Source of the DNA: Candidatus Daviesbacteria bacterium
GTDB taxonomy: Bacteria > Patescibacteriota > Microgenomatia > Daviesbacterales > UBA10151
DNA length: 64,000 nt
NCBI GenBank assembly: GCA_016187035.1
Contig: JACPKL010000010.1
Location: forward strand, 26,014 to 90,013
Reading direction: 5' to 3'
Shown: one piece after another, positions 1-23,069 of the stretch
Numbering within the stretch: the stretch's first letter is position 1
Layout: each line of letters begins with the position of its first letter
Program-made: the position numbers and the translations under genes
Notes under the pieces: model-generated
What the model saw: only the letters and a program-made list of their open reading frames with translations
What the model was told of the DNA's origin: nothing
The model's database searches: none

Positions 1-2
1 AA

Positions 3-3329: not shown

Positions 3330-3405
3330 AGCTTGATAAACGTAAAAACTTCCACCTTCGACGGAGAACCTTTCCTTTTTCTGACGAAAAACGTAAAATT
3401 ACATC

Positions 3406-6901: not shown

Positions 6902-6925
6902 ATGTACCTTTCTTAAATCATGTTT

Positions 6926-8224: not shown

Positions 8225-8231
8225 AATGAGA

Positions 8232-8276
8232 TTAGAAGGTTCCCTTCATTTCCGGAGGAAAGAAGGTTCCCTTCAT
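8232..8276 (-). promoter_or_regulatory. secD leader: tandem 16-nt repeat (two small hairpins) that also forms a 14-codon uORF
   Basis: The minus strand reads ATGAAGGGAACCTTCTttcctccggaaATGAAGGGAACCTTCTAAtctcattATG(secD). Each 16-mer contains the hairpin GAAGG-GAA-CCTTC. Read as an ORF it gives MKGTFFPPEMKGTF*, ending 7 nt before the secD ATG. Confidence 0.45.
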
Positions 8277-8282
8277 AACTAC

Positions 8283-8879
8283 CTATATGATTACCCCTTC
8301 TAAAAGCTCATCTTCGTCACCTATTAACATAATCTTTGACTGAAGTAATACTTTTAAGATAAAAGGGTCGCGTCTTCTAACTCTAAAAGTAAATTCTGCT
8401 TCATCCATAAATGAATAGTTTATCTCTTGCTCTCTTTTAGCTTGCTCATCAGCTATGATAACTTGAAGCTCTGGTAAAACTATGCTTCCTACCACTAGAA
8501 GGTTTACATCCTCAGGATCACTTCGTTCACCTTTCAGAAATTTAGTTGAAATAAAAGAATATTTTATTTTGCCAAGCTTTCCTCTATTTTTAATTAAATT
8601 CCCCCCTAATCCAGAGGTCTTTGCAATTAATGCCAACAACTCTCTATAAAAAATATAGTCTTTTCTAAATCTATACAATCTTCTGTTAGCACGCCACTCA
8701 GAAATAACCATTCCATATTTTTCCATTCTAGCAAGTTCTCGTCTAACAGCATTAATTTCCTCAGAAACTCTCCTTACTATTTCTCGAACATGAAAAAGCG
8801 ACTCTTGAGGAGAAGTTAAAAAAAGTTGTAATATCTTTACCCGGACTCTTGATACGAATAACTCTTCTAACATTGCCAC
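8283..8879 (-). CDS. winged-helix transcriptional regulator
   Basis: 198 aa. The N-terminus SRVRVKILQLFL...FHVREIVRRVSEEINAVRRELARMEKYGMV is typical of ArsR/MarR-like wHTH proteins. Confidence 0.55.
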   Translation of the reverse strand: MAMLEELFVSRVRVKILQLFLTSPQESLFHVREIVRRVSEEINAVRRELARMEKYGMVISEWRANRRLYRFRKDYIFYRELLALIAKTSGLGGNLIKNRGKLGKIKYSFISTKFLKGERSDPEDVNLLVVGSIVLPELQVIIADEQAKREQEINYSFMDEAEFTFRVRRRDPFILKVLLQSKIMLIGDEDELLEGVII

Positions 8880-8903
8880 CTCCTTTCAGGCAGGCAATTA
8901 AGC

Positions 8904-10094
8904 TTAGTAACTCACTTTGGATCCCTCCGGGACAGTTTGAATCCATATTTGCCCTCTGTTAAATTGAATTTCACGACCATTCATATCAACATATTTAGTC
9001 CTTGAAATCCTTGATTGTTTAATCCATTTACCTTCTATGACATTACCATCCATAAAAAATAAGGCTTTACCTGAACCAGTTGTACCATAAAGTAGATGAA
9101 CATTCCCAGGGTAACCATCATTAGCATTTGACTCCCTTTCAAACTGTATTACTATCATCTTAGGTGTTAATTGGGTGTTTTTGTTTAAATCCATATGAGG
9201 AATACCTCCATTGTTCCTTTTATAGGTATTAGTAGTAGCGTCATAGTTCCACTCCACATTATAAGCTGGCTGATTTTCCCAGAAATTAACTTGAATTTTA
9301 TTGGTTTTCCCTTCGGAATTTCTATCCTCTTTAAAACTCCAAGGGGTAAATTTTTTATCCCATTTCATACCTGCTGAATCAGTGGCTGTCCAACCTCTTT
9401 TAGCTCCAATTTCCCATAGTTTCTGAGTGGTAGAATACATGGTATGTTCTGTTGCTACAGAATGACCCAGTCTTTGATAATCCCTCCAAAATACTGGAAA
9501 ACCTATTGAGAACTGATTAAGATCTTTAACCTCATATTTAATAATCCGACCTAAGGCATCTGCCGGTCCAGGAGTATTTGCTCCACCAACATGAGCATAT
9601 AAGGCATCATATTCTCCTAACCAATCCAAAAAATAGGTCCTGGCTGACCTAACTGGTCCAACTTGTGCATCTGATAAATTACAATAAAATAGAGCCATAA
9701 AACGGGTAATCCCCCCCTCAGCTACAGCTTCATATACAACATCAGCTGAAGACAACCCTGATTGAGGTCTAGCTTCAGAATGATTTTCAATCATCACCGC
9801 CAAAGGTCTTCTTTTTTCCCAAAACTCACGGGCTTTTTTAGTGTGCTTAAACCCATTTAAAGGACAAATTTCAGTTTTGGGTTCATTAGGATCTTCTTCT
9901 GTAATACTTGAAGCACTAGGTAATTTTGATTTTGAAGTATCCTGACTTATTGATGGAGTCTGGCTAGCAACTTTGCTAAAAATAGCATAAGAAACACTAG
10001 CAGAACTACCATATAATAAGGTTGATAAAATTATCAATACTAAAATTTTTTGCAAATTTGTTAATCCTTGAAATATTTCTGTTACTTTATTCAT
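8904..10094 (-). CDS. DUF3048-family (YerB-like) secreted or membrane-anchored protein
   Basis: 396 aa with an N-terminal TM/signal segment. RPLAVMIENHSEARPQSGLSSADVVYEAVAEGGITRFMALFY is the characteristic DUF3048 N-terminal block. Confidence 0.7.
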   Translation of the reverse strand: MNKVTEIFQGLTNLQKILVLIILSTLLYGSSASVSYAIFSKVASQTPSISQDTSKSKLPSASSITEEDPNEPKTEICPLNGFKHTKKAREFWEKRRPLAVMIENHSEARPQSGLSSADVVYEAVAEGGITRFMALFYCNLSDAQVGPVRSARTYFLDWLGEYDALYAHVGGANTPGPADALGRIIKYEVKDLNQFSIGFPVFWRDYQRLGHSVATEHTMYSTTQKLWEIGAKRGWTATDSAGMKWDKKFTPWSFKEDRNSEGKTNKIQVNFWENQPAYNVEWNYDATTNTYKRNNGGIPHMDLNKNTQLTPKMIVIQFERESNANDGYPGNVHLLYGTTGSGKALFFMDGNVIEGKWIKQSRISRTKYVDMNGREIQFNRGQIWIQTVPEGSKVSY

Positions 10095-10218
10095 CTCTTA
10101 TTGCTCTTTCCACTACTTGCTGTTCTTCTTTTGATTGTTTCCAAATAAAAAAACTTAGTGCTCCCAACCAAAGCGTTAAAATCCCTAATGCAAACGGGCC
10201 AACCCAATCCGAATACAT
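10087..10218 (-). CDS. small membrane protein (43 aa), not in ORF track
   Basis: The minus-strand ORF reads MYSDWVGPFALGILTLWLGALSFFIWKQSKEEQQVVERAIRDE*, with one TM helix. Its stop overlaps the start of the DUF3048 gene (gATGAATAA). Confidence 0.4.
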   Translation of the reverse strand: MYSDWVGPFALGILTLWLGALSFFIWKQSKEEQQVVERAIRDE

Positions 10219-10301
10219 AAGTTACTCTTTAACTATACCTAGCCCAAAAAAAATTGTCAATGATAACTCTATAAACCCATAGTTTTAGCTTCAACTAGTG
10301 C

Positions 10302-10340
10302 TTGACACGCACAATTGAACATGCTAGGCTCAATTGTGCG
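10302..10340 (+). promoter_or_regulatory. promoter overlapped by an 11-bp perfect inverted repeat (candidate operator)
   Basis: TTGACA (10302-10307), a 17-nt spacer, then TAGGCT (10325-10330). The inverted repeat is cgcacaattga (10308-10318) and tcaattgtgcg (10330-10340). An AAGGGA SD lies 6 nt before the ATG at 10353. Confidence 0.5.
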
Positions 10341-10352
10341 TAAGGGAATTAC

Positions 10353-10649
10353 ATGGCTCTTCACCAGATTAAGAAACAATCAGATTTGGATAAACGATTA
10401 AAATTAATTCGTCAACAAATATATGGCAGAGAAACAGTATTAAGTAAAACTGGACTAACTTCGCAAAATCATTATCAAGCAGCAGTGGAAGACAAAAAAA
10501 ATGCTAAATACATGATATCTAATGTAGAAATAGGCAACTTTTATCAAGATCTTTTCAAAATCGGCATCTTTGCCAGTCTCGCAATAGGCAGCCAAGTTAT
10601 TCTATTTATCTTAATGAAAAATCACGTCTTGAATCTAAATTTCTTTTGA
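10353..10649 (+). CDS. hypothetical small protein with C-terminal TM helix
   Basis: 98 aa with an SD-like AAGGGA upstream and the C-terminal hydrophobic segment IGIFASLAIGSQVILFILM. Confidence 0.5.
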   Translation: MALHQIKKQSDLDKRLKLIRQQIYGRETVLSKTGLTSQNHYQAAVEDKKNAKYMISNVEIGNFYQDLFKIGIFASLAIGSQVILFILMKNHVLNLNFF

Positions 10650-10669
10650 AGGGAGGTGAATTAATAGTT

Positions 10670-10807
10670 ATGCAAATGTATTGTGTTAAATGTAGACAAA
10701 AAAGAGATGCAACAAATGTACAAGAAGTTACCATGAAAAATGGCAAAAAAGCTTCAAAAGGTACTTGTCCAGTTTGTGGAACTTCAATGTTTAAGATTGG
10801 TGGTTAA
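10670..10807 (+). CDS. small zinc-ribbon protein (DUF5679-like), not in ORF track
   Basis: The ORF reads MQMYCVKCRQKRDATNVQEVTMKNGKKASKGTCPVCGTSMFKIGG*, with CxxC...CxxC. A strong SD (GGGAGGTGA, 10651-10659) precedes it and a terminator follows. Confidence 0.7.
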   Translation: MQMYCVKCRQKRDATNVQEVTMKNGKKASKGTCPVCGTSMFKIGG

Positions 10808-10845
10808 ATTTTGGTATTCTAAAGCTTTAGAATTCACCATCTTGA

Positions 10846-10874
10846 AAAAGGGTCTGAGTTCAGACCCTTTTTCG
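10846..10874. terminator. bidirectional rho-independent terminator
   Basis: aaaaaGGGTCTGAgttCAGACCCtttttc lies between the convergent genes ending at 10807 (+) and 10883 (-). Confidence 0.8.
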
Positions 10875-10882
10875 TTAATAAA

Positions 10883-12412
10883 TCATAAATCCTCTCTTGA
10901 TCTATATTGCAAAGCCTCTGCAATATGTTCAGTTAAAATACTCTCTGATGCTGATAAATCAGCAATCGTTCTTCCTAACTTTAGCACACGATGATAACCT
11001 CTAGCAGAAAGGTTCAAAGAAGATACCGCCATCTTCAAAAGTTCTAATCCTTCTTCAGTCACACTACAAAACTCTCTGATGCCAGCATTTGTCATTTCAG
11101 AATTAGTTAAAATTCTGCCTTTAAATCTTTCTTGTTGGATATCTCTTGCTAGTTTCACTCTTGCTCGAATATCTTTAGAACTTTCCATGGTTAGATGTGA
11201 AGACAGTTCATCTACTTCGACTGTCGGCACCTCCAAATAAATATCAATCCTGTCTAAAAGCGGTCCTGAGATTCTTCGTTTATATTTAGCAATTTGTCCA
11301 GGCATACAAGAACAATTCCTTCTTTTATCTCCCAAAAAACCACAAGGACAAGGATTTTGTGCAGCAAATAAAATAAATTGTGCAGGAAAAGTTAAAGAAC
11401 CTGATGAACGAGAAACGGTTATTTTATGATCTTCTAATGGTTGTCTTAAGGACTCTAAAACAGATCTGGGAAACTCTGGCAATTCGTCCAAAAAGAGTAT
11501 ACCTCGATGAGAAAGTGAAATCTCTCCAGGCCTAATTGTATTTCCACCACCTAACAACCCTGCTGCTGAAGCTGTGTGGTGAGGAGTCCTGAAAGGACGT
11601 TGACTAATCAGTGATTTCCCTGAATCTAATAAGCCAGCAATTGAATAAATTTTTGTAACTTCAATTGCCTCATCTAAACTTAAAGACGGCAAGATAGATG
11701 GAAACGCTCTAGCTAACATTGTTTTCCCTGCTCCTGGAGGACCTTTTAACAAAATATTATGCGCTCCAGCTGCAGCAATCTCCAAAGCTCTTTTTGCTTG
11801 CTCTTGACCTTTTATTTGAGAGAAATCATATTCATATTCATCAGTTTCATTGATATTAAGAATATTTCCTTTAATTGGTTCAATATCTAATTGACCTAGT
11901 AAAAATTTAATTAAATCTTGTAAGGAATTAACAGGTAACACTTCCAATCCTCCAATTATACTGGCTTCAACAGCATTATCTTTTGGGACTATTATCCTTT
12001 TTATTTTTCTATTCTTCGCCAAAATTGCCAACGGTAAAATTCCATTAGTTCTCCTTAAAGTTCCATCTAATGACAATTCTCCTATTACTAAACTATTTTG
12101 GATGTCATCGATTTGATTCAGCGGTATTTGCCCAGAAGCAGTTAGAATCCCTAGGGCAATCGGCAAATCGTAAGCTGGTCCTTCTTTTGGTAAATCAGCC
12201 GGAGCCAAATTAACAGTTATCTTTTTAGACGGAAAGTCAGCTTTACAGTTTCTTATTGCAGATCTAACTCTATCTCTACTCTCTTCCACAGCTCTATCAG
12301 CTAATCCAACAATGGTAAAAGAAGGCAACCCAGATGAAGCAATATCTACTTCGCAAACTACAGGCACTGTATCCAATCCTATATTAGCCCCAGAAAGAAC
12401 CTTGGAAAACAT
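10883..12412 (-). CDS. comM: YifB/ComM family Mg-chelatase-like AAA+ ATPase
   Basis: 509 aa with a Lon-like N-terminal domain, Walker A GPPGAGKTMLA, a cysteine cluster (CPCGF...CSC) and a C-terminal ChlI-like domain. Confidence 0.85.
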   Translation of the reverse strand: MFSKVLSGANIGLDTVPVVCEVDIASSGLPSFTIVGLADRAVEESRDRVRSAIRNCKADFPSKKITVNLAPADLPKEGPAYDLPIALGILTASGQIPLNQIDDIQNSLVIGELSLDGTLRRTNGILPLAILAKNRKIKRIIVPKDNAVEASIIGGLEVLPVNSLQDLIKFLLGQLDIEPIKGNILNINETDEYEYDFSQIKGQEQAKRALEIAAAGAHNILLKGPPGAGKTMLARAFPSILPSLSLDEAIEVTKIYSIAGLLDSGKSLISQRPFRTPHHTASAAGLLGGGNTIRPGEISLSHRGILFLDELPEFPRSVLESLRQPLEDHKITVSRSSGSLTFPAQFILFAAQNPCPCGFLGDKRRNCSCMPGQIAKYKRRISGPLLDRIDIYLEVPTVEVDELSSHLTMESSKDIRARVKLARDIQQERFKGRILTNSEMTNAGIREFCSVTEEGLELLKMAVSSLNLSARGYHRVLKLGRTIADLSASESILTEHIAEALQYRSREDL

Positions 12413-12447
12413 TGATAGTAAGACTATTATATAGTAAAATATAGCGG

Positions 12448-12712
12448 CCTAGGAAGAAGGATGATTATCCCGCACTAAATTGATGAGGGAAGGAAAGTCC
12501 AGACAGCGTAGAGTAGGGTGGTTACTGCAAGGTAACGGTCGCAAGATCCAGTTAGAGCAACAGTGACGAACCGAGGTTATGCTCGGGTGAAACGTGGCAA
12601 TCCTCCCCGCTGCAATCCTAGAACCGACAGGACTACTCGTCCATTTGTCGAAGTAAGGAGCATTAGATAAATTATCATCTTGTAACAGAATCTGGCTTAC
12701 TATCTTCCTAGG
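12448..12712 (+). ncRNA. rnpB: RNase P RNA (bacterial type A-like, reduced size ~265 nt)
   Basis: The universally conserved blocks are present: GGAAAGTCCagaC (P4 5' side), GGGTGAAA and ACAGAATCTGGCTTA (P4 3' side). The terminal helix pairs cctaggaagaag with cttcctagg. ORF 12449..12715(-) is an artefact of this RNA. Confidence 0.85.
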
Positions 12713-12714
12713 CA

Positions 12715-13683
12715 CTAAACCTTCTTTCCTTCAATTATTTCATTTACGACAATATATGCAACCACAGCAATAGGTACTGCCAATAATGCTCCCATGAACC
12801 CTAAAAGCCTTGAACCTATTGCGATTGCTAAAATCACAACTAGAGGATTTAATCCCACAGCCCTTTTCATCACCTGGGGGACAATCAAATGGTTTTCCAA
12901 CTGTTGAATTACGAAATACATAGCTGTTGTGCCTATACCCAAGATAGGGGAAATTGTTAATGCTATTAAAATCGTTGGTATTGCTGAAATAATTGGACCA
13001 ATTACCGGAACTACTTCCAAAACTCCTGCAACTACTGCTAGAGGCAAGGCGTATGGAATTCCTAGAATCAATAGTCCAATATAAGTTAATATACCAATAA
13101 CCAAACTTAAGAATAACTGTCCCCTAAACCAACCACCTAGCTTTTCCTCTATTTGAATTATCAATCTTTTAATCCTTACCTCTTTCCCTATAAATAAAGC
13201 GGCAGACCGATCTTCTAAATTTTCTCGCTCTAACATTAGATAGAAGGTTAAAACAAGAAGAAATATAATTGTTAAGAGATTATCAAATATAGAAAGTGTA
13301 ATAGATAAAGCACTTTTTGATAAAGCGCTTAATTGCGCTTGAAGAACTGATTTATCTATTGCTGCCATTTCAAGCAACTGATCTAGATATGGAGGAAGAG
13401 TCAAAAAAAGTTTCCTGGTTTCTTCTAACAGAGGAGGTATCACAAGCACCAGCAACCCTGAGACTAAGGCTATAATAATAATGTAGGTTATAGCAATACT
13501 TAATGATTTAGGAACTCTATATTTAGTCAAAAACTTAACCAAAGGAGATAAAGCAGACATTAAGATTACTGCTATGAATAAAATAATTAGTAAATCCCTA
13601 ATTAAATAGATTAACCAAATACCCAATACGAACACGGCAATAAAAATAACCGTCTTATGAGAAACATCAATCTTTTGCGCCAT
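12715..13683 (-). CDS. AI-2E family transporter (PerM/UPF0118)
   Basis: 322 aa with ~8 TM segments and the C-terminal conserved block VPVIGPIISAIP...IVPQVM...GLNPLVVILA. Confidence 0.8.
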   Translation of the reverse strand: MAQKIDVSHKTVIFIAVFVLGIWLIYLIRDLLIILFIAVILMSALSPLVKFLTKYRVPKSLSIAITYIIIIALVSGLLVLVIPPLLEETRKLFLTLPPYLDQLLEMAAIDKSVLQAQLSALSKSALSITLSIFDNLLTIIFLLVLTFYLMLERENLEDRSAALFIGKEVRIKRLIIQIEEKLGGWFRGQLFLSLVIGILTYIGLLILGIPYALPLAVVAGVLEVVPVIGPIISAIPTILIALTISPILGIGTTAMYFVIQQLENHLIVPQVMKRAVGLNPLVVILAIAIGSRLLGFMGALLAVPIAVVAYIVVNEIIEGKKV

Positions 13684-13689
13684 AGATAT

Positions 13690-14670
13690 TTAAAAAGAAT
13701 CATACCATGAGCGTACTAATTTTTCTATCTTATTCAAATAATTCAAATCTGTAATATCAAACCAATTTACATCTTTTTCTTTTTTAAACCATGTCATTTG
13801 TCTACGAATATAATCATGAATCTTCAATTGTAAAACTTTAATAAGTTCATCCTGAGTCTGAATTCTTCCCTCTAAATAATCAGCTAAAACTCCATATTCT
13901 AACCCTAGTTGTTTCATCCTATCTAAACTCAAACCATTTTTATGAAGATTTTCCGATTCTTCAATCATTCCTAGCTTAATTCTACCCACTACATGCTTAT
14001 CCGACCTTTGGTATAAAATTTCCCTATCAGTAATTAATCCAATTTTTAAAGTATTATAGTTTTGAGATTTGAATTGTAGTTTTGAGTTTTGACATTTGAG
14101 TTTTGAGTTTATCATTATCTCTATTGCTCTGATCAATCTTCTGGGATTTTGCCTATCAGATATATTAAGACTATTCCATTTATCAGGAGAGATATCCTGC
14201 AGTTTTTGTTGTAACTTCTTTACTTTTAAATCGTTTAATTGTTTTCTTAAGTTTTGATCAATAGGTATTGATAAATTAGGCAAACCTTCTAATAATGCTT
14301 TAAGATATAATCCAGTGCCCCCTGCTATTATAGGTAACTTTCTTCTATTAAGAATTCCAAAGATTACTTTATTGGCATCTTTAATATAATCATAAACTGT
14401 ATATTGTTTTTTAGGAACCACCACATCATACTGCCAGATCTTGACCCCCTCCACCTCCCACCTCCCTTTACTTTTTTCCACTCTTAACTGTTTATTGCGT
14501 AAGCAACAAACTTGTTTATTTGGCATTTTCCCTGTACCAAGATCCAATCCCATATAAACCTGCCTTGAATCACAAGAGATTACCTCTCCATCAAACCTTT
14601 TAGCTAAGTATAAAGCTAGATCTGTCTTACCTGTTGAAGTAGGCCCTAAAATTATTAATAATTTTCCCAT
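13690..14670 (-). CDS. miaA: tRNA dimethylallyltransferase MiaA (with two lineage-specific insertions)
   Basis: P-loop GPTSTGKTDLAL, then DSRQVYMGLDLGTGK, PIIAGGTGLY, RRLIRAIE and RRQMTWF. Confidence 0.85.
   Translation of the reverse strand: MGKLLIILGPTSTGKTDLALYLAKRFDGEVISCDSRQVYMGLDLGTGKMPNKQVCCLRNKQLRVEKSKGRWEVEGVKIWQYDVVVPKKQYTVYDYIKDANKVIFGILNRRKLPIIAGGTGLYLKALLEGLPNLSIPIDQNLRKQLNDLKVKKLQQKLQDISPDKWNSLNISDRQNPRRLIRAIEIMINSKLKCQNSKLQFKSQNYNTLKIGLITDREILYQRSDKHVVGRIKLGMIEESENLHKNGLSLDRMKQLGLEYGVLADYLEGRIQTQDELIKVLQLKIHDYIRRQMTWFKKEKDVNWFDITDLNYLNKIEKLVRSWYDSF
14060..14110 (-). repeat. tandem ~7-nt repeat (TTTTGAN units) inside miaA coding sequence
   Basis: The plus strand reads ttttgag atttgaa ttgtag ttttgag ttttgac atttgag ttttgag. 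It is translated as KLKCQNSKLQFKSQN. A related array lies in mltG at 63098-63127. Confidence 0.6.
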
Positions 14671-14684
14671 GAATGTATTATCCT

Positions 14685-15845
14685 TTAAAGAACGTGTCCA
14701 TTTTGAATAAAGATTAGCGAAAGAATTATTAGTAGAACAGAGGACAGCAATATCCAGATATAAAGAAATATCTTATTGTTTGAAAATATGGCTAAAACTA
14801 AATACATAGGAAATAAAGTCAATATATACCTCATCATACATATCCAAAAACTCATTGAATAATAAAAAAACAAATTAATGATCATAAATAATCCATAACT
14901 TATTCTTACTTTTACTAAAACATAGATAGACATAAATAATCCCAAAATAAAAGCTATGATTTGTCCATAACCTAACATAAGTCTATCTATGCCAGAACGC
15001 CAGGATATTGCTTTAAATGCATCTATTAATCCCTGTCCAAACGGAGAAAATCTTTCATACCAATGTTGATTTTGTATGATTGTAAAATAGAAAAAGTTTC
15101 CCCAAAGGTAATAATTAATAGTTAAATAGACTAAGAATCCTGATAAAGAAATCAATAGACCAAATAATAAGATATGCTTATTATTTCGTAATGAAACATT
15201 TAAATAATTAAAAATATTCTTTTTCAAACTACCTTTGTTAAAAATTATTATTTCTAAAAATAAAGCTGGAATCAATGCTAACCCCGCTATTTTAGTTGCA
15301 GAAGCTAACCCTGCACAAATAAAGCTTAACCAGTATCGCTGTCTCCTTACAAAATAAAATGAACTAACAGTCAATGAAATAAATAATGGTTCTGTATATG
15401 GAATGTGAAGAAAAAAAGAGGTAGGAAATATAAATAACATTAAGATAGTCATATTTGCAACTCTTTTTGGGTAATCAATTAAAACCAATTTGTAAAGTAC
15501 AATCGACAGCAATATCGAAAACATAAATGAAGAAAGATATCCAGAAACTAAATAATTTACATTGAACAAAAACTTTAGTAAAAAAATTGATAAAGGAAAG
15601 AGAGGTAAAAGAATAATAAAATTAGCCTCATCTCCTAACTTTTGATATCCAAATTCTGCTACAGATATATAATGAGGCGCATCCCAAACATTCCATAATT
15701 GCCAAATATTTAAATTAGAAGCCCTAGAATTAACAATTAAATTCGTTGATAATTCTGCAATTATAAAGAGAACTATTATTTTGCTAATTAGGGCAATTAG
15801 AATAGGTATATAATATTGTTTGATAAATTGATATAAAACACTCAT
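14685..15845 (-). CDS. GT-C-type polytopic membrane glycosyltransferase (PIG-V-like mannosyltransferase family)
   Basis: 386 aa, multi-TM. The loop motif WNVWDAPHYISVAEFGY resembles the W-D-x2-Y-x-IA-x-GY signature of PIG-V-like enzymes. A paralogous motif occurs in 19979..21376. Confidence 0.6.
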   Translation of the reverse strand: MSVLYQFIKQYYIPILIALISKIIVLFIIAELSTNLIVNSRASNLNIWQLWNVWDAPHYISVAEFGYQKLGDEANFIILLPLFPLSIFLLKFLFNVNYLVSGYLSSFMFSILLSIVLYKLVLIDYPKRVANMTILMLFIFPTSFFLHIPYTEPLFISLTVSSFYFVRRQRYWLSFICAGLASATKIAGLALIPALFLEIIIFNKGSLKKNIFNYLNVSLRNNKHILLFGLLISLSGFLVYLTINYYLWGNFFYFTIIQNQHWYERFSPFGQGLIDAFKAISWRSGIDRLMLGYGQIIAFILGLFMSIYVLVKVRISYGLFMIINLFFYYSMSFWICMMRYILTLFPMYLVLAIFSNNKIFLYIWILLSSVLLIILSLIFIQNGHVL

Positions 15846-17093
15846 ATGAGACTTAATAATAAGTTATTATACCCTTCTATTATCTTTTTCTTAAGTTTTT
15901 CCTTTTATTTTATTTTCGCTGGCAGGTTTAAGTTCGTTTTTCCCACTACCATCTATAATTACTTCAATTTTCTGTCAGAAGCTTTTTTGCACAAAAGTCT
16001 TTCTTTCGTCTCCAGACCTCCTTATTTACATGACCTAATAACTTTTAATAGTAGAATCTATGTATATTGGGGACCAGCACCAGTACTGGTGATAATTCCA
16101 TTTATTATCTTTTTCGGCAGAGAAGTTAGTGATGCTTTATATACATCTTTTATTGCTTCTTTTAATCCGTTAATTTTGTATTTTCTATTACAGCAATTAG
16201 AAAAAATCACTTTGATTAAAACTTCTAATTTCCAAAAATTTATTCTGTGCATTTTTTTTGCATTTGGTACGGTTCATTTTTATTTGTCAATCTTTGGAAC
16301 GGTTTGGTTTACTTCACAAGTTATTTCCATATTTTATTTATTACTGAGTTTACTGAGTATAACAAGATATTCAGATTCAAAAAATTTTATCACTTTACTT
16401 ATTGCAACAATGCTTTTTGGATTAGCCGTAAACGGTCGTTCAGCATTAATATTTTATACACCTCTATTTCTATCTTTATTAATAATCCCTTATCTTATCA
16501 ACAAACATTTTTGCCAACTTGCAAAACATATCATTCTTGTTATGTTTATAGGAATTATCTTCTTGACTGTAAACGCGTTTTATAATTATTTAAGATTTGG
16601 CTCTTTTTTTGAAAATGGCTATCGCTTTCACCGTTTTGCTGCTCATCTAGCCAATGATCAAAAAAGATACGGCTTTTTTAATTTATCCTATGTGCCTAAG
16701 AACTTTTATTACATGTTTACCAACTTTCCTAAACTGGTCGATAAATTCCCTTTCTTTCTATTTGACAAAGAAGGTAATAGCGTATTATTTACTTCACCTT
16801 TAGTTTTGATATCTATTTTTATTGTTAAGAGAAAACATTGGCAAAATAATAAATTAAAATTAATTAATTCCTCAATCCTGATAGGAATGTTATTAACAAT
16901 TGTACTGTTATTATACTTTTGGGGAACAGGATGGGTACAATTTGGTTATAGATACTTGCTAGATATCATACCATTCTTAATCATCCTGCTCGCTGAAGTT
17001 ATCTCTGAAGTTCCCATCATATTAACAATAATCTTATTGACAATATCTATATTAATCAATATTTTAGGAACCTTTTGGTTCCTAAACCTTTAA
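15846..17093 (+). CDS. polytopic membrane protein, GT-C/ArnT-PMT-like glycosyltransferase (by architecture)
   Basis: 415 aa with at least 10 hydrophobic segments and no soluble domain. The call rests on architecture and context only. Its start codon abuts the divergent neighbour (CAT|ATG at 15843-15848). Confidence 0.5.
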   Translation: MRLNNKLLYPSIIFFLSFSFYFIFAGRFKFVFPTTIYNYFNFLSEAFLHKSLSFVSRPPYLHDLITFNSRIYVYWGPAPVLVIIPFIIFFGREVSDALYTSFIASFNPLILYFLLQQLEKITLIKTSNFQKFILCIFFAFGTVHFYLSIFGTVWFTSQVISIFYLLLSLLSITRYSDSKNFITLLIATMLFGLAVNGRSALIFYTPLFLSLLIIPYLINKHFCQLAKHIILVMFIGIIFLTVNAFYNYLRFGSFFENGYRFHRFAAHLANDQKRYGFFNLSYVPKNFYYMFTNFPKLVDKFPFFLFDKEGNSVLFTSPLVLISIFIVKRKHWQNNKLKLINSSILIGMLLTIVLLLYFWGTGWVQFGYRYLLDIIPFLIILLAEVISEVPIILTIILLTISILINILGTFWFLNL

Positions 17094-17097
17094 TCAA

Positions 17098-18351
17098 ATG
17101 TTTATTAAAAGACTTAAACTATTAAATGAAAGGATATTTTGGATTCTAATTTTAATAATTTTGATTAGAGTTCTTTTAGTTTTATTACCTAGTTTCAGAA
17201 TCGATATGACAGATTGGCAAGCATGGACCCAACGACTTGTTCAATTAACTCCTCTTCGGTTTTATTCACCAGATTATTTCTCAGATTACTTCCCTGGTTA
17301 TTTGTATATACTCTGGTTTTTAGGTCTATTTTTTAAAGTATTGTTTCCGCATCTTTCTTTATTCAGCTTTGGATTTGAAATTTATTTGAAATTGCTTACT
17401 AATATCTTTGATTTGGCAACTGCTTATTATATTTATAAAATTATTTCTAGATATAAAAAAGGTCTTGGAATCTCTTCTGCTATTTTTTATTTGATCAATC
17501 CTGCATTAACTTTTAATTCTTCTGTCTGGGGACAAGTTGATGGAATTTTAACTTTTTTCTTAGTTTATTCTTCTTACTGTTTATTGGAACTTAAAAAAAT
17601 CTACCGATTTAGTATCTCTTTCGCTCTGTCTAGTCTGGTCAAACCCCAAGGGACAGCAATATTTCCTATAATGCTGACATATCTAATTACTAATTATAGG
17701 TTTTCAAAATACCTTAGTTTATTAATCATACCCTTATGCTTAATGCTTTTATCTTTACCTTTCTTTTTGAAAGATCCAATATTTGGTCTTTTTCACCTTT
17801 TTCAAAAAAGCACAAGTACATATCCTTATACTTCGATGTTTTCATATAATTTTTGGTCTTTTGCAGGATGGTGGATTCCTGATTCTCACAGTTTCTTAAA
17901 TATACCTTATCGTACTTGGGGAATAATTATCTACTTGTTTTTCTTAATTCTAATTTTATTCCCACTTACTTTCAAAAAGGGTTATAAAAAAAATTCTTTA
18001 GTTTATTTTGCCATATCATTAGCAATTTTTGCTTTCTTCCTCTTTCTAACCAGAATACATCAACGCTATTTATATCCCTTCTTTGCCTTTTTGCTAATTA
18101 CGGCTTTTATTCATAATTCTTTGAGACTTAAGGCCATTTACATCATCTTATCGTTAATCCACTTTATTAACCTATGGTATGTTTACTATTACTATAATTT
18201 TGTATACCCCAATCAACAATTTGCTTCTTTATTTATTTATCAGTTACTAAATCAGTCTTATAACCTTTTTACTTTGTTAAATTTGATTGGTTTTGGAGTA
18301 TTATTGTTAGTATATTATAGATCGAGCTACTCTATAAAAAATTCTAAATAA
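17098..18351 (+). CDS. GT-C membrane glycosyltransferase (DUF2029/GT87 PimE-like)
   Basis: 417 aa. The first loop, RIDMTDWQAWTQRL...FYSPDYFSDYFPGYLY, resembles the D-x3-W...YPP-x-Y loop of polyprenol-phosphate-sugar-dependent GT-C enzymes. Confidence 0.6.
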   Translation: MFIKRLKLLNERIFWILILIILIRVLLVLLPSFRIDMTDWQAWTQRLVQLTPLRFYSPDYFSDYFPGYLYILWFLGLFFKVLFPHLSLFSFGFEIYLKLLTNIFDLATAYYIYKIISRYKKGLGISSAIFYLINPALTFNSSVWGQVDGILTFFLVYSSYCLLELKKIYRFSISFALSSLVKPQGTAIFPIMLTYLITNYRFSKYLSLLIIPLCLMLLSLPFFLKDPIFGLFHLFQKSTSTYPYTSMFSYNFWSFAGWWIPDSHSFLNIPYRTWGIIIYLFFLILILFPLTFKKGYKKNSLVYFAISLAIFAFFLFLTRIHQRYLYPFFAFLLITAFIHNSLRLKAIYIILSLIHFINLWYVYYYYNFVYPNQQFASLFIYQLLNQSYNLFTLLNLIGFGVLLLVYYRSSYSIKNSK

Positions 18352-18354
18352 TTT

Positions 18355-19569
18355 ATGATTAAATCATATCTAAAACCAAAGAATATATTAATCGTAATTT
18401 TACTTTTAACAGCCTTCTTACGATTGTATCGTCTAGATTATCCAAAAAATTACGTCTTTGATGAAGTTTATCATGCTTATACAGCCAAAGAATATTTAAA
18501 AGGTAATAAGGAGGCTTGGAGTCCTTGGGGTAAATCTCCTCCCGGGGTAGCTTTTGAATGGCTGCATCCACCTATAGCTAAGGAATTAATGACATCTTCA
18601 ATGTTTTTATTTAACAGCACAGATGGTTGGGCTTGGAGGTTACCTGGTGTACTTCTCGGGATTTTTGCTGTATTCCTAGTTTATCAACTTGCTCTACTTC
18701 TTTTAAAGAATCAGAATTCTGCTTTAATCTCTGCCTTTATTTTTTCTATAGATGGATTAGTGTTTGTTCAATCCAGAACCGGAATGAATGACGCTTATTT
18801 AGTAGCTTTTATTTTAATCAGTACCATCTTTTTTGTTAAGGAAAGGTTTATACTGTCTGCTCTTTTCATGGGAGTTGCTATAGCCACAAAATGGTCTGGA
18901 ATTTATTTATCATTAATGTATTTTCCAATCCTTTTATACCAGCGCCAATTTAGTAAATTAATATATTTCATTTTAATACCTCCTATCATATATCTAATCA
19001 GTTATACGCCTTACTTTTTAATCGGCTATAAGGTAAGTGATTTTATTGAATTACATCGACAAATATGGTGGTATCAGACACATCTTAAAGCGACTCATGC
19101 ATACTCCTCTCCTTGGTGGTCTTGGCCGCTAAATCTTTATCCTATTTGGTATTTTGTAGATTATCAAAAAAATACTATCGCAAATATTTTTGCTTCGGGC
19201 AATCCAGCTGTTTTTGGAATTGGAAGCATATCTGTAATTCTCACCGCTATTCAAACATTTCAAAAAAAACTATTCAATCTAGTATTAATAGTCCTTGGAT
19301 TTTTAGTTTTTTGGCTGCCTTGGGCGTTTTCTCCAAGAATAATGTTCCTCTATCACCTTAGTCCATCTGTTCCATTCTTAGCGCTATCTTTAGGTCATCA
19401 ACTTGGCTCAAGATTATCAGATAAAAAAGGCCGCCAATTAGTAGTAATCCTATTAATTCTGATGTTAATAAATTTTGTTTTGTTTTTCCCTTTTCTAACT
19501 GGCATACACATTCCTAGAAATTTTATAAATCTTTTTTTTGCTACCAACTTTTCTAAAAATCCTTTTTAA
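18355..19569 (+). CDS. GT39-like protein O-mannosyltransferase (PMT family)
   Basis: 404 aa. YVFDEVYHAYTAKEYL (the DE-motif loop) and WLHPPIAK match bacterial Pmt/PMT_2 signatures. Confidence 0.7.
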   Translation: MIKSYLKPKNILIVILLLTAFLRLYRLDYPKNYVFDEVYHAYTAKEYLKGNKEAWSPWGKSPPGVAFEWLHPPIAKELMTSSMFLFNSTDGWAWRLPGVLLGIFAVFLVYQLALLLLKNQNSALISAFIFSIDGLVFVQSRTGMNDAYLVAFILISTIFFVKERFILSALFMGVAIATKWSGIYLSLMYFPILLYQRQFSKLIYFILIPPIIYLISYTPYFLIGYKVSDFIELHRQIWWYQTHLKATHAYSSPWWSWPLNLYPIWYFVDYQKNTIANIFASGNPAVFGIGSISVILTAIQTFQKKLFNLVLIVLGFLVFWLPWAFSPRIMFLYHLSPSVPFLALSLGHQLGSRLSDKKGRQLVVILLILMLINFVLFFPFLTGIHIPRNFINLFFATNFSKNPF

Positions 19570-19629
19570 GAATCGGGTGAAAGGTTATTTGGATCTTTTA
19601 GACCGAAGGTCACAAGAACCTGTAGGCCC

Positions 19630-19902
19630 TTATTTAATCTGCCTTTTTAAAGTTTTCCCCGCAGTAAAGCCAGGTGTCTTCTTATTAGGGATTTGGATAG
19701 TCTCTCCTGTTTGTGGATTTCTCCCACGCCTGGCTGCCCTTGATCTAATTAAAAAGGTTCCAAAACCTGTAATAACAATTTTTTCTCCTCTGACTAATCC
19801 ATCTTTAATCAAATTAAAGGTTGAATTAACCGCATCAGATGCAGCTCTTTTTGTGAGATTAGCTTTTTTAGCAACCTTTTCAATTAACTCATTTTTTGTC
19901 AT
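19630..19902 (-). CDS. hup: DNA-binding protein HU
   Basis: 90 aa: MTKNELIEKVAKKANLTKRAASDAVNSTF...GFGTF..R.RAARRGRNPQTGETIQIP. Confidence 0.9.
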   Translation of the reverse strand: MTKNELIEKVAKKANLTKRAASDAVNSTFNLIKDGLVRGEKIVITGFGTFLIRSRAARRGRNPQTGETIQIPNKKTPGFTAGKTLKRQIK

Positions 19903-19908
19903 GACATT

Positions 19909-19937
19909 AACTTAGCAAAAGATTAATCTTTTGTAAA
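19909..19937 (-). promoter_or_regulatory. hup promoter with -10 box 6 nt from the ATG (leaderless architecture)
   Basis: The minus strand reads TTTACA-17 nt-TAAGTT-aatgtc-ATG. Confidence 0.45.
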
Positions 19938-19978
19938 GACCCGAAACAATTTAGTAAACTAAGTTATAATTTTATGAG

Positions 19979-21376
19979 ATGGTTTATTTTAAAAAAATTT
20001 TCTTAAACTTAAAGGGACTTTTCATTTTCCCTAAATCTTTTGCAGATAATAAAACCGTACTAAAATATGCAGTATCGCTTTTTTTAATCTGGAGATTGGC
20101 TCTACTTTTTATCGCATTTTTAGGATTAAGTGTCTTCCCAAATCTGGATTTTTATAATAAAAAATTATTCTTCCCTCATATAGGCCTAAATTTTTGGGAC
20201 AGATGGGCTAATTGGGACTCAGGAGCGTTTATGTATATTGCAAAAAACGGATATGTCCCGGGCTGGACAGTCTTTTTCCCATTATACTCAATCTTTATTA
20301 AATTTGTAACACTTTTTGGACTTAATACTTTTTGGGCGGGCTTTCTAATTTCTCAAGTGAGCACCATTATATTTCTATTTTATCTATATAAGATAACCAT
20401 CTTAGATTTTGATACGAAAGTTGCTAAAAGAACACTTTTCGCAATCCTTATTTTCCCCACCAGTTTTTATCTGGGTAGTGTTTATAGCGAATCTTTGTTT
20501 TTAGCAACTTCAATTTCAGCTTGCTATTATGCTAGAAAAGAAAAGTGGTTATTGGCTTCACTATTAGCAGCTTTAGCATCTTCAACTAGACTGGTTGGTC
20601 TCGGAGTAATTCTAGTCATTTTCATTGAGTATTTTACTAAACAACCAAAGATTAATCTTGGTTTCCTCTGGCATAATAGATTCAATAGAGTATCTATCTA
20701 TCTAATTTTAATTATTATTGTTCTAGATATTACTAATAACTCCATTAAAACAAATAACTTACTGATCTCTGGTGTAATAGTTAGTGTAATAGAACTGACT
20801 GCTTGGATTTTGATACTAGTTGGTCTACTTATATTGTCTCAATTTATAAAGTCTATGAAAAGTATAAATATTAATAAAATCTTATCTATTAATTTTGGGT
20901 ATTTATATCTTTCTTTACTTCCTTTTGCTGCTTATCTTCTCTATCAAAAATTTAGATTTGGCTCATATCTAACATTCATTAAAAGTGAGTCCTGGTGGGG
21001 CCGAACACTTAGCGAACCTTGGATAGGACCCTTATATAGTTTCCTGTATCTAATATCAAACTCACCAACTACAACTGAGTTTACTGCTCACATATATGTT
21101 AGGTCTCTAGTTTTTATTATAAGTTTAGTTTGCTTAATAATCTGTTGCTACAAATTACGTCCTTCCTATATTGCCTTTTATTTGATAGCTTTTCTTTTCC
21201 CCTTATTTTCAGGAACCTTGGCCGATTTTCCTAGATATTCTTTAATAATCTTCCCAATGTTTATTATTTTTGGAACAATCAAAAATGAGTTGATCCAAAA
21301 AATGAGTATACTTTTTTCAATACTTCTACTCTCTGTTTTAACTATTCTTTATTTCAACTCTTACTTTTTTATCTAG
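19979..21376 (+). CDS. GT-C-type membrane glycosyltransferase (PIG-V-like), paralog of 14685..15845
   Basis: 465 aa, multi-TM, with the motif WDRWANWDSGAFMYIAKNGY. TATAAT at 19965-19970 lies 8 nt upstream of the ATG. Confidence 0.6.
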   Translation: MVYFKKIFLNLKGLFIFPKSFADNKTVLKYAVSLFLIWRLALLFIAFLGLSVFPNLDFYNKKLFFPHIGLNFWDRWANWDSGAFMYIAKNGYVPGWTVFFPLYSIFIKFVTLFGLNTFWAGFLISQVSTIIFLFYLYKITILDFDTKVAKRTLFAILIFPTSFYLGSVYSESLFLATSISACYYARKEKWLLASLLAALASSTRLVGLGVILVIFIEYFTKQPKINLGFLWHNRFNRVSIYLILIIIVLDITNNSIKTNNLLISGVIVSVIELTAWILILVGLLILSQFIKSMKSININKILSINFGYLYLSLLPFAAYLLYQKFRFGSYLTFIKSESWWGRTLSEPWIGPLYSFLYLISNSPTTTEFTAHIYVRSLVFIISLVCLIICCYKLRPSYIAFYLIAFLFPLFSGTLADFPRYSLIIFPMFIIFGTIKNELIQKMSILFSILLLSVLTILYFNSYFFI

Positions 21377-21440
21377 TTTCTATATGAAACACTCAATAAC
21401 TAAACTAATTAGTCAATGTACGAGTTGGAAACATGCTAAA

Positions 21441-23069
21441 TTAGTATTCCACCTTTTTACCATTTAAAGAGTAAAGTTTAACTCTTGTTAAATCATTGTT
21501 ATATACTAGGATCCAATCCTTAAATTTTTCCGGTAAAGATATACCCTTGGTCAGGATATAATCAAATTTATCGCCTTTTTTAATCCAACTTTCATGGATA
21601 TAAGGAAAGTTAACATAGTATAAATTACTAATCCCGTAGATTAAGACTTTGTTATCAGGTTTTATAGTCCTTGTAAAGAAATTGTCTACATCATAAAAAT
21701 TACCTACATTGTACTCTAAATTATTAGACATAAATGTATCCACATTTTCCTTACCCAAAAAAACAGGAACAAACCGTTTATTGGCAGTGCCGCGGTAGAC
21801 GATAGAACTAAGCGAAACAATCAATACTACTGCCAGAAGAAATTTATATAACAGCTTGCTTTTCAAAAGATTGAGAAGAAGAACAAAAAGCAATGAGAAG
21901 GCCGGCAAATAAGGCATAACGAACCTTCCGCTACTTGCAAGAGGGGTAAAGTAGAGAAGAATGGATCCGAGGGCAAGATATATGAGTAATAAATTAATCA
22001 GTAATCGGGTCTGTTTATTGATTGTTTGAAATAGAATATTGCCAAAATAAAATATTATAAGTGGTAGGGAAATAAAATAAATGGGTGAGAGAGGATCAGG
22101 AGAAAGAAGAAAAATAGACCATGTAGTACTTATAATATCTGTAGGATTAAAAGATGTCGCTTCACCTAAATTTTGATTAATTGGTGAAAAAATAGGATAA
22201 AAAGGATTCCCTGTGTTAAGGTAGGAAAAAATCAACCAGGGAGAAACAATAATGAAAACTATTGTACAAAAAAATAAAGATTGTTTAAGAACAGTAACTA
22301 ATTTAACTTTTTTCAAAAGAGATATATATAGAAGTAAAGTAAGGTAAATAGCAACAGACCATAGGCTTAAAAGTTTGCAAGATGCTGCAAAACCCAGCAT
22401 TGTTGCTGATATTGTCAGCCATTTAGAAAGCCTGTATCTGATAAAGTTAAGAAAACTCCACAAAGCCAAAGTTTCAAAAAAGGTTCTTGCTAAATCAATA
22501 TAGGCTGTTATAGACATCCACCCCACAACCAAATTTGAATAGAAAATAAGGCTGACCAAAAGAGAATCTTTAGATGACAGAAAGCTACGAGATATTTTAT
22601 ATAAAGCAACAAGAGTTGCTATTCCAAATAAAAGATGAATTATTTTAGCAGTGATCTCACTTCCTAAAGCAAGAGCTGCAATATAAAACATCTCAGTAAA
22701 CTTAGGCATGGCTGAATAATAAAGATGTCCGCCTATATAAAAGATAGAGTTTTGTTGCAAATAAATTTTGGGGATTGTTAAATGGTACCAGAGAGCATCA
22801 AAAGCAAGTTCTGGCCCTAAGGCACCAATCAGATTAATCAAGGTTTGAATAATAATTAAAGAGATCAAGAGAATAGAAGATGGCTGATTTTTTCTTATAT
22901 AGATTTTAAAATGCAATAGATCTTTTAATCTTTTCCGAAAGTTTAGAGTTAAAATTAAAAGAAAACTTATCGTACTGATAGAAATAATGTCTTTTTTCAG
23001 AAGATGCAAAAGTCCCAATAAGAATATAAGGTAAGAATAAAGCGCGCTTAAAAGGGCCAATTTAAACAT
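21441..23069 (-). CDS. GT-C membrane glycosyltransferase (ArnT/PMT_2-like) with C-terminal soluble domain
   Basis: 542 aa with ~12 TM segments followed by a ~130-aa C-terminal domain. The loop is ELAFDALWYHLTIPKIY. Confidence 0.6.
   Translation of the reverse strand: MFKLALLSALYSYLIFLLGLLHLLKKDIISISTISFLLILTLNFRKRLKDLLHFKIYIRKNQPSSILLISLIIIQTLINLIGALGPELAFDALWYHLTIPKIYLQQNSIFYIGGHLYYSAMPKFTEMFYIAALALGSEITAKIIHLLFGIATLVALYKISRSFLSSKDSLLVSLIFYSNLVVGWMSITAYIDLARTFFETLALWSFLNFIRYRLSKWLTISATMLGFAASCKLLSLWSVAIYLTLLLYISLLKKVKLVTVLKQSLFFCTIVFIIVSPWLIFSYLNTGNPFYPIFSPINQNLGEATSFNPTDIISTTWSIFLLSPDPLSPIYFISLPLIIFYFGNILFQTINKQTRLLINLLLIYLALGSILLYFTPLASSGRFVMPYLPAFSLLFVLLLNLLKSKLLYKFLLAVVLIVSLSSIVYRGTANKRFVPVFLGKENVDTFMSNNLEYNVGNFYDVDNFFTRTIKPDNKVLIYGISNLYYVNFPYIHESWIKKGDKFDYILTKGISLPEKFKDWILVYNNDLTRVKLYSLNGKKVEY

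Follow-up and report, generated by a model that had tools for sequence, protein, structure and literature searches.

A locus of six GT-C-type membrane glycosyltransferase genes with a recurrent G3-G4 pair in Candidatus Daviesbacteria

The protein O-mannosyltransferases (PMTs) of eukaryotes are obligate dimers of two GT-C subunits. In the Corynebacterineae a chain of GT-C enzymes (PimE, MptA/B/C, Emb and Aft) builds lipomannan/lipoarabinomannan (LM/LAM) and arabinogalactan before ligation by Lcp1, and three-component surface glycosylation employs a GT2 lipid-phosphate-sugar synthase, a small flippase and a GT-C transferase. The subject of this report is a locus of six GT-C genes, designated G1 to G6, at nucleotides 14685–23069 of a 64,000-nucleotide stretch (hereafter the window) of contig JACPKL010000010.1 from Candidatus Daviesbacteria, a groundwater bacterium of the Candidate Phyla Radiation (CPR) with a tiny genome. 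The G3-G4 pair, not singled out in the first-pass annotation of the window, is the most informative feature of the locus.

A related pairing has been described in mycobacteria, where a pull-down with tagged Mycobacterium smegmatis Pmt recovered the Rv0051 homolog, a GT87-like protein reported to lack catalytic residues; the authors modelled the pair as a heterodimer like yeast Pmt1-Pmt2, in which the partner is needed for Pmt function (bioRxiv 10.64898/2026.07.15.738315, July 2026). The same preprint reports a GT87::GT39 fusion in Paenibacillus (UniProt V9WAU2) and the absence of a MIR domain from actinobacterial Pmt. Judged from sequence, the G3-G4 pair fits this pattern and extends the pairing to CPR bacteria, Chloroflexi and archaea. 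Our literature search found no dedicated study of such modules in CPR, Daviesbacteria or Microgenomates; two papers on CPR genomes contain no more than passing mentions of GT87 or dolichol-phosphate mannosyltransferase genes. The genes of the locus are:

14685–15845, minus strand: G1, 386 amino acids, a PIG-V/GPI18-like (GT76-like) GT-C membrane glycosyltransferase (HYW41_03965; "hypothetical protein" at NCBI)
15846–17093, plus strand: G2, 415 amino acids, a GT-C_A-fold protein (HYW41_03970; "hypothetical protein")
17098–18351, plus strand: G3, 417 amino acids, a GT-C_B-fold protein (ALG6/PIG-M/PimE-like) and partner of G4 (HYW41_03975; "hypothetical protein")
18355–19569, plus strand: G4, 404 amino acids, a GT39-like PMT core with no MIR domain (MBI2597289.1; "phospholipid carrier-dependent glycosyltransferase")
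19630–19902, minus strand: hup, 90 amino acids, an HU/IHF-type DNA-binding protein (Bac_DNA_binding, E-value=1.6e-32)
19979–21376, plus strand: G5, 465 amino acids, a second PIG-V-like GT-C protein, accessory (HYW41_03990; "hypothetical protein")
21441–23069, minus strand: G6, 542 amino acids, a PMT_2/ArnT-like GT-C_A protein, accessory (MBI2597292.1; "glycosyltransferase family 39 protein")

All six proteins are GT-C-type enzymes, placed as such by independent lines of evidence. The direct Pfam scan, reported to E≤1 with the curated gathering cut-offs applied, recognises two of them, G4 (PMT, PMT_4TMC) and G6 (PMT_2). Similarity to solved GT-C structures is supported by Foldseek comparisons of the G2 and G3 models, by a phmmer match of G4 to Pmt1 and by a match of the G6 family profile to ArnT, while G1 and G5 are linked to GT-C indirectly, through the PF04188 matches of their homologs and hhalign comparison with the G6 family. 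Each family has a conserved acidic residue shortly past the first membrane helix (G1 D55, G2 D63, G3 D36, G4 D36-E37, G5 D80, G6 D91); family topology and positive-inside reasoning suggest that this first loop faces outward. The first-pass annotation had read six GT-C glycosyltransferases from the sequence alone and had named profile searches as the means of refuting this; Pfam, Foldseek and hhalign point to GT-C proteins and not to transporters. Its family guesses were largely right (two PIG-V-like proteins, one GT39/PMT-like and one PMT_2/ArnT-like with a soluble tail), the gene that it could assign by architecture only, G2, now has fold evidence in its Foldseek GT-C matches, and for the catalytic Asp/Glu loops that it left to be located the conserved first-loop residues of all six are candidates. 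The motifs that it quoted for G1, G3, G4 and G5 are likewise present, with one loose point: WD and Y, given as two residues apart, are separated by 3 to 5 residues in G1 (WDAPHYISVAEFGY) and G5 (WDSGAFMYIAKNGY).

The association of G3 with G4 was surveyed with a G3 family profile scan, one genome per species, which yielded 80 loci (referred to by L numbers) whose open reading frames (ORFs) were searched with the six family profiles. The G3 homolog was fused in frame to a G4-like PMT in 22 loci, adjacent to one on the same strand within 150 bp in 36 and adjacent on the opposite strand in five, so that the pair was fused or adjacent in 63 of the 80. A G4-like PMT lay within 3 kb of the G3 homolog in five further loci, and in 12 none was present in the retrieved stretch, some of these stretches being cut short by contig ends. 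The orientation of the fusions is constant, G3 being N-terminal and G4 C-terminal in all; L068 (9992–12460) and L045 (9902–12895) are two of them. They measure approximately 810–845 amino acids in Woesebacteria, Blackburnbacteria and other Microgenomates, and approximately 990–1050 amino acids in Dehalococcoidia, Chloroflexia and one Nitrososphaerota genome; the Pfam families PMT, PMT_2 and PMT_4TMC are recognised in their C-terminal half, and the N-terminal half has no Pfam match. The two genes stand side by side in Daviesbacteria, Levybacteria, Bathyarchaeia, Methanoperedens and one Nanoarchaeia genome.

G4 matches the Pfam families PMT (E-value=2.9e-18; 66.8 bits, cut-off 22.7) and PMT_4TMC (E-value=5e-18; 65.8 bits, cut-off 32.4). 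It aligns with yeast Pmt1 (6p25_A; phmmer E-value=6.8e-9) in two pieces that flank the MIR domain and include the 4-TM C-terminal region; its VFDEVYH motif is aligned with VFDEVHF of Pmt1, and HPPIAK is also present. All 58 ungapped partners retain D36-E37. The lumenal MIR domain of the eukaryotic PMTs is absent from G4, the Pmt1 alignment skipping that region. In comparison with the eukaryotic Pmt1-Pmt2 pair (GT39), G4 is half the size, its partner belongs to GT-C class B and not A, and it would draw on a bacterial polyprenyl phosphate donor in place of a dolichyl phosphate one.

The AlphaFold2 model of G3 (pLDDT 91.8) is almost wholly a helical bundle. Its closest structure by Foldseek is ALG6 (6snh; E-value=9.3e-7, TM-score 0.72), with PimE (9dm7/9dm5) at TM-scores of 0.59–0.66 and further matches to GPI-MT1 (9wno), ALG3, PIG-U, ALG9 and ALG12. 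Among its homologs GT87 is matched by 3/36 and PMT_2 by 4/36, while G3 itself has no Pfam GT87 (PF09594) match. The GT-C_B class is secure, the narrower family assignment is not. The DUF2029/PimE-like label of the first-pass annotation stands in this broad sense; for PimE or GT87 in particular the ALG6 score and the three homologs in 36 speak less well. The motifs IDMTDW and SDYFPGY are present. D36 is kept in 77 of the 80 loci, the other three having gaps, and thus in 77/77 ungapped homologs from bacteria and archaea; over the same 80 loci D105 is 99% and D148 100% Asp or Glu, and R319, H321 and R323 are each at least 90% conserved. In the model D36 opens the first loop helix, at a distance of nine residues from the end of the first transmembrane helix (TM1), and a first-loop site after TM1 is the usual place of the GT-C catalytic base. 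Conservation of this kind across bacteria and archaea is expected of an active site rather than of a scaffold. From its sequence, G3 is probably catalytically competent, with D36 as the candidate catalytic Asp.

The likeness to mycobacterial Pmt (Rv1002c, GT39) with Rv0051/MSMEG6899 lies in the combination of a MIR-less PMT core, which keeps its Asp-Glu, with a GT-C_B/GT87-like protein, and in the occurrence of the pairing as a fusion in some lineages, as in Paenibacillus. There are differences. G3 keeps D36, D105, D148, R319, H321 and R323, whereas the mycobacterial partner (Rv0051/ML2687c) is reported to lack catalytic residues; G3 has no Pfam GT87 match, and ALG6 is its best structure. No β-propeller (Rv3212-like) or DivIVA-like (Rv1209-like) partner was seen in the window. 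The hosts also differ, being CPR bacteria, Chloroflexi and archaea for G3-G4 and Actinobacteria or Firmicutes for the precedents.

Homologs of G1 and/or G2 are contiguous with G3/G4 in approximately 30 loci. The four genes form one contiguous block in the window, in L006 and in the Microgenomates loci L010, L023, L077, L080, L081 and L085, G1, G3 and G4 do so in Bathyarchaeia L087, and G1/G2 recur beside the pair in Woesebacteria, Bathyarchaeia and the bacterial metagenome-assembled genome 'Ca. Fervidifonticultor'. In the Chloroflexi loci G2 and the fusion are separated by a gene for a DUF2298 membrane protein. Other Daviesbacteria contigs carry the same genes in the same order, and the cluster is therefore no chance arrangement. 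The Daviesbacteria relatives keep a backbone of rny-hup-...-G4-G3-(G2)-G1-miaA within which the content varies: L004 has three GT-C genes only (G4, the G3 homolog and G1), and L006 has G1 to G4 plus a DUF2079 membrane protein in place of G5/G6. A G1-family gene is found at G5's side of G4 in two of the eight closest species loci (L012, L015), and no clear G6-type gene was found at this locus in the related loci. The recurrent module is G1-G4 with G3-G4 as its tight core; G5 and G6 are additions that occupy a variable slot in the surrounding housekeeping backbone (rny, hup, miaA).

This arrangement does not bear out the single six-gene pathway of the first-pass annotation, nor is the density of the cluster as exceptional as it had supposed. 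Two to five GT-C genes are usual at this locus in Daviesbacteria and their relatives, and L089 (nucleotides 1–11182; uncultured bacterium GCA_030647365.1) contains five tandem PMT_2/PMT genes followed by GT2, GT4, a PIG-V-like gene, a Polysacc_synt (Wzx-type) flippase and further GT2/GT4 genes; dense GT-C clusters are thus not unique to the window. The cluster elaborates locally on a widespread module and is not a unique six-step pathway. Many of the records (L009, L012–L015, L017, L027 and others) are titled 'uncultured Gammaproteobacteria bacterium isolate binchicken_...', and their G3 homologs are 60–71% identical to the protein of Daviesbacteria. L012–L015 show Daviesbacteria-like synteny under these titles, and the names look like placeholders or errors.

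G2 belongs to a widespread GT-C_A family that has no Pfam or NCBIfam model of its own. Its AlphaFold2 model (pLDDT 95.1, pTM 0.94) is again almost wholly a helical bundle, and the top 34 Foldseek matches in the PDB are all GT-C-fold chains. They comprise PglB (5ogl; E-value=4.7e-4), STT3, ArnT (5f15), AglB, Pmt4, GPI-MT1, Emb, AftB, ALG6 and PIG-U, a subunit of the glycosylphosphatidylinositol (GPI) transamidase; transporters are matched with probabilities of 0.04 or less. PMT_2 is matched by 8/50 G2 homologs, the family being otherwise almost unannotated. Profile-profile comparison (hhalign) of the G2 and G6 families gave a probability of 97.4% (E-value=1.5e-11), the single G6 sequence against the G2 family giving a weak 11%. 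Conservation of the first-loop D63 is 90% or more.

G1 and G5 are paralogs (BLASTP 26% identity, E-value=5e-19), no other pair in the cluster being similar by BLASTP. PF04188 (Mannosyl_trans2, PIG-V) is matched by 27/42 aligned G1 homologs (best E-value=2.9e-14) and PMT_2 by 8/42; neither G1 nor G5 itself reaches the PF04188 threshold. The G1 family aligns with the G6 family by hhalign (probability 97.2%, E-value=3.7e-11), D55, which is invariant in the G1 family, being aligned with D91 of G6. G5 aligns with the G1 family (probability 100%, E-value=3.6e-49), its D80 falling on D55, and has an insertion of approximately 80 amino acids that carries two extra hydrophobic segments. Both proteins share the first-loop Asp and the general architecture of GPI mannosyltransferase II, PIG-V/GPI18 (GT76); unlike the setting of that enzyme, no other GPI-pathway gene is present alongside them. 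Bacterial 'Gpi18-like' proteins are, to our knowledge, uncharacterised.

G6 matches PMT_2 (PF13231) with 26.6 bits against a cut-off of 26.1, and among 54 aligned members of its family PMT_2 is found in 40 and PMT in 17. The family is large, with 6744 cluster representatives at E≤1e-3 in an exhaustive search, and D91 is invariant in it. Its profile matches ArnT (5ezm; E-value=3.8e-6), from which G6 differs in an extra N-terminal hairpin and in a soluble C-terminal domain of its own of approximately 110 amino acids, no hydrophobic segment occurring past about residue 430. The C-terminal 112 amino acids (nucleotides 21441–21779) are conserved family-wide, with the motifs FYDxDG and HNLYYxDFPF; the domain has no Pfam match, and its PDB sequence matches are insignificant.

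Pfam scans of the non-ribosomal ORFs revealed no GT2, flippase or LytR-CpsA-Psr (LCP; LytR_cpsA_psr) protein in the window, and a GT2 profile built from the linked archaeal genes described below matched none of the window ORFs of at least 90 amino acids in six frames; the earlier statement that the window holds no donor synthase or flippase is confirmed. In 17 mostly archaeal loci, by contrast with the window, a 250 amino acid GT2 follows directly after G3-G4 (e.g. L048, 12949–13695). The ends of these G3-G4-GT2 trios (L048, 9896–13695, and about 16 others, in Bathyarchaeia, Nitrososphaerota and one Nanoarchaeia genome) abut or overlap, and three bacterial loci have related GT2 genes next to the module. 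In NCBIfam the linked GT2 proteins score highest, though always below the cut-offs, with ArnC, PgfS, AglJ, dolichyl-phosphate hexose transferase and PpgS, and the GT2 of these lineages is, on its sequence, the expected donor synthase, resembling polyprenyl-phosphate glycosyltransferases. The archaeal order of G3, G4 and GT2 has the synthase-plus-GT-C logic of the three-component systems (GtrA/B/Gtr-type, CsbB-GtcA-YfhO), from which the window differs in having no linked GT2 or GtrA-like flippase. The PMT plus PMT_4TMC architecture in archaea seems little discussed.

The linked phosphomannomutase of the first-pass annotation (28867–30258) is a four-domain protein of the PGM/PMM superfamily which scores below every equivalog cut-off (PMM/PGM 338 against 618; archaeal-type GlmM 311 against 439). 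It is part of a conserved housekeeping block with metK, and the block recurs in L004, which has three GT-C genes only. With these ambiguous scores and this conserved block, the mutase was rejected as specific evidence for mannose, and the proposed link was not upheld. The search for an acceptor in the window gave only a weak lead, a DUF3048-type protein (8904–10094, minus strand) in which a stretch rich in Ser/Thr (12 of 30 residues) comes after an N-terminal membrane anchor. L004 and L006 conserve the gene in this neighbourhood, and the Pfam label is taken from their orthologs. That it is an acceptor of O-glycosylation is speculation.

The locus probably decorates surface proteins or wall polymers with sugars. 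In the mechanism that we propose, each enzyme would take a sugar from a polyprenyl-phosphate carrier and transfer it at the outer face of the cytoplasmic membrane by way of the acidic residue in its first extracytoplasmic loop, as is usual in the superfamily. G3 and G4 would act as one heteromeric unit, like yeast Pmt1-Pmt2 and the mycobacterial Pmt/GT87-like complex. G4 would place the first hexose on Ser/Thr of exported proteins and G3, since it retains a candidate catalytic Asp, would add the next sugar or help to present the acceptor. G2 and G1, frequent companions of the pair, would lengthen or branch the glycan, and G5 and G6, as strain-level additions in the variable slot between rny and hup, would diversify the product. 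The synthase that loads the carrier would be encoded outside the window, as distinct from the archaeal and some bacterial loci in which it would be the gene directly after G3-G4. We infer the donor type, topology, acceptor, order of action and a physical G3-G4 complex. The "mannosylation" of the first-pass annotation is a family label and not a result, because the sugar follows from family names only; the best structure for G3, ALG6, is a glucosyltransferase, and PMT_2/ArnT-like enzymes use varied sugars.

On balance we think it probable, if only just, that the locus is built on a heteromeric G3-G4 core which, with G1 and G2, glycosylates exported proteins, while G5 and G6 diversify the product. 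A number of observations weigh against this. G1, G2, G3 and G5 themselves have no Pfam match at E≤1 apart from a sub-threshold VKOR match of G3 (E-value=0.025), which was discarded together with weak AZOBR_p60025 and LA_3751 matches, all far below the cut-offs. The G1, G2 and G3 family profiles found nothing significant among PDB sequences (hmmsearch), which made fold comparison necessary, and the Foldseek TM-scores of G2 are moderate (approximately 0.5). If these proteins were transporters or other polytopic proteins merely resembling GT-C enzymes, their "hypothetical protein" labels and missing Pfam matches would be accounted for. That is very improbable: transporter structures, at Foldseek probabilities of 0.11 or less and TM-scores of 0.2 or less, rank under every GT-C match of G2 and G3, and the family-level Pfam, PDB, fold and profile-profile results all indicate GT-C, for which reason this identity was rejected. 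As to G4, it is at least 100 amino acids shorter than actinobacterial Pmt and scores 65.2 bits against the cut-off of 800 of the NCBIfam Pmt equivalog PrMnsylTfPmt; it is filed accordingly as a GT39-like core and not as an ortholog of the characterised bacterial Pmt, and its role as a protein O-mannosyltransferase is unproven. Many of the counted adjacencies are from related lineages. None of the Microgenomates loci has a linked donor synthase, flippase or obvious acceptor, and we know of no biochemical data for the six families in CPR bacteria. Lastly, a glycopolymer ligase of the LCP family abuts the G3 homolog in 18 Levybacteria-type loci (e.g. L016, 8849–9979), with FemAB and UvrD near it and, in 14 loci, a Big_13/fn3 surface protein beside G4. 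In L088 an LCP gene (12290–13198) flanks the module in the order fusion, G2, a 385 amino acid ORF in G1's usual position (assigned by position alone) and LCP.

The LCP neighbours hint at a link to the cell wall, and fit a wall-polymer pathway as well as protein glycosylation. The GT-C enzymes might then extend a lipid-linked or lipid-anchored polysaccharide outside the membrane, for LCP perhaps to ligate to peptidoglycan, the acceptor of G4 being something other than protein. The structural relatives of G3 (ALG6, PimE, ALG3 and GPI-MT1) all use lipid-linked acceptors, PIG-V-like enzymes act on glycolipids, and in L089 PMT_2 and PIG-V-like genes stand amid polysaccharide genes. There is also a resemblance to the GT-C lines of the Corynebacterineae (PimE, MptA/B/C, EmbA-C, AftA-D) in the series of GT-C families working outside the membrane, here presumably with polyprenyl-phosphate sugars, in the PimE-like fold of G3 and in the LCP genes beside the module in related loci; at the sequence level, however, no mycobacterial family was matched, and the mycobacterial genes are dispersed whereas those of the Daviesbacteria window are packed together. 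We regard a wall-polymer or lipoglycan line as unlikely, since the window scans revealed neither LCP nor priming transferase nor flippase, and G4 has both halves of the GT39 core with the invariant Asp-Glu typical of protein O-mannosyltransferases. The LCP adjacency is largely the synteny of one lineage, and neither its 18 loci nor many of the other adjacencies are independent events; moreover, LCP enzymes also serve protein glycosylation, as with LcpA of Actinomyces. Less likely still is a complex of the mycobacterial type in which G4 is the sole active enzyme, G3 a scaffold that presents the acceptor, as proposed for Rv0051/ML2687c, and the other four genes unrelated accumulations in a permissive locus. 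The requirement of Pmt for a partner without catalytic residues is a precedent for this, and the varying content of L004 and L006 would suit it; the conserved acidic and basic residues of G3 set out above do not, and the recurrence of G1/G2 beside the pair in distant lineages argues against chance accumulation of those two. A bolder form of the protein-glycosylation reading can be offered tentatively, although we would sooner doubt it than not: G3-G4 would be an ancient GT-C machine with two active sites, heteromeric or fused, in CPR Microgenomates, Chloroflexi and several archaeal lineages, in which the GT39-like PMT starts an O-glycan on exported proteins and the catalytically competent ALG6/GT87-like partner, in one complex with it, adds the next sugar. 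G1 and G2 would complete an O-glycan line lying wholly outside the membrane, supplied by lipid-monophosphate sugars only and involving no cytoplasmic oligosaccharide assembly.

The locus is compact, as the first-pass annotation had noted: ORF coordinates and hydropathy agree on six large proteins, each with many hydrophobic segments, in 8385 bp with only hup between them. The latter, found at the identical position in L004 and L006, is a conserved backbone gene within the cluster and stands outside the glycosylation machinery. Gaps of only 4 nt (G2-G3) and 3 nt (G3-G4) make G2-G3-G4 look like one operon. G1 and G2 are divergent and their start codons touch (CAT/ATG, 15843–15848), leaving zero intergenic DNA, so that the promoter and ribosome-binding site of each would fall inside the other gene; at this junction the relatives L006, L010 and L004 have gaps of 4 to 83 nt. 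Promoter and terminator scans of the window gave as many sites as expected from shuffled sequence and were uninformative. The G+C content is 28.6% at 14001–18000 (G1-G3) as against 34–36% in the flanking housekeeping genes, which may reflect membrane proteins rich in Phe, Ile, Leu, Tyr and Asn or a different origin.

Pfam and Rfam scans placed a comM-like ATPase, RNase P RNA, an AI-2E transporter and miaA on one flank of the cluster. On the other are rny, downstream of which G6 lies on the minus strand, recX, recA, a B3_4 protein, metK and the PGM/PMM-family mutase, and then the ribosomal protein and rpoBC region. The RNase P RNA (12449–12715, plus strand) is of bacterial class A (Rfam 108 bits, gathering score 100) and covers the full model in 267 nt, compact for its class; an 88 amino acid ORF on the minus strand is probably spurious because the RNA occupies the same coordinates. 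Two further ORFs have no family match. One, of 445 amino acids (60736–62073, plus strand; Pfam and NCBIfam), is flanked by the rpoB side of the ribosomal/RNA-polymerase block and by a gene with a riboflavin kinase domain; its N-terminus is rich in Ser and Thr, and a charged region in it may be a coiled coil. The other, of 298 amino acids (6005–6901, minus strand), lies between secD and secF; a similar-sized ORF without a family match occupies this place in Daviesbacteria L004, and L090, from the same organism, has an identical one.

For annotation, the four of the six genes (G1, G2, G3 and G5) that the public NCBI record calls "hypothetical protein" can now be assigned to a fold and class. The pattern of G3-G4 adjacency and fusion suggests a second GT-C subunit as the usual working partner of PMT-like enzymes. 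For mycobacteria this idea goes back only to the 2026 preprint; it holds here for CPR bacteria, Chloroflexi and archaea, where the partner seems to be active. If G3-G4 does have two active sites, PMT-type protein O-glycosylation would extend well beyond Actinobacteria and eukaryotes, and the fusions would be natural single-chain versions of the Pmt dimer for structural work. The natural fusions (810 to 1050 amino acids) and enrichment-cultured carriers such as Methanoperedens are in any case concrete material for studying PMT-type glycosylation. The connection with an epibiotic lifestyle made in the first-pass annotation is pure inference. CPR organisms rely on cell-surface contact and are unable to produce many precursors of the envelope, and a conserved, locally diversifying surface-glycosylation locus may plausibly be a determinant of their envelope properties or of phage/host recognition.

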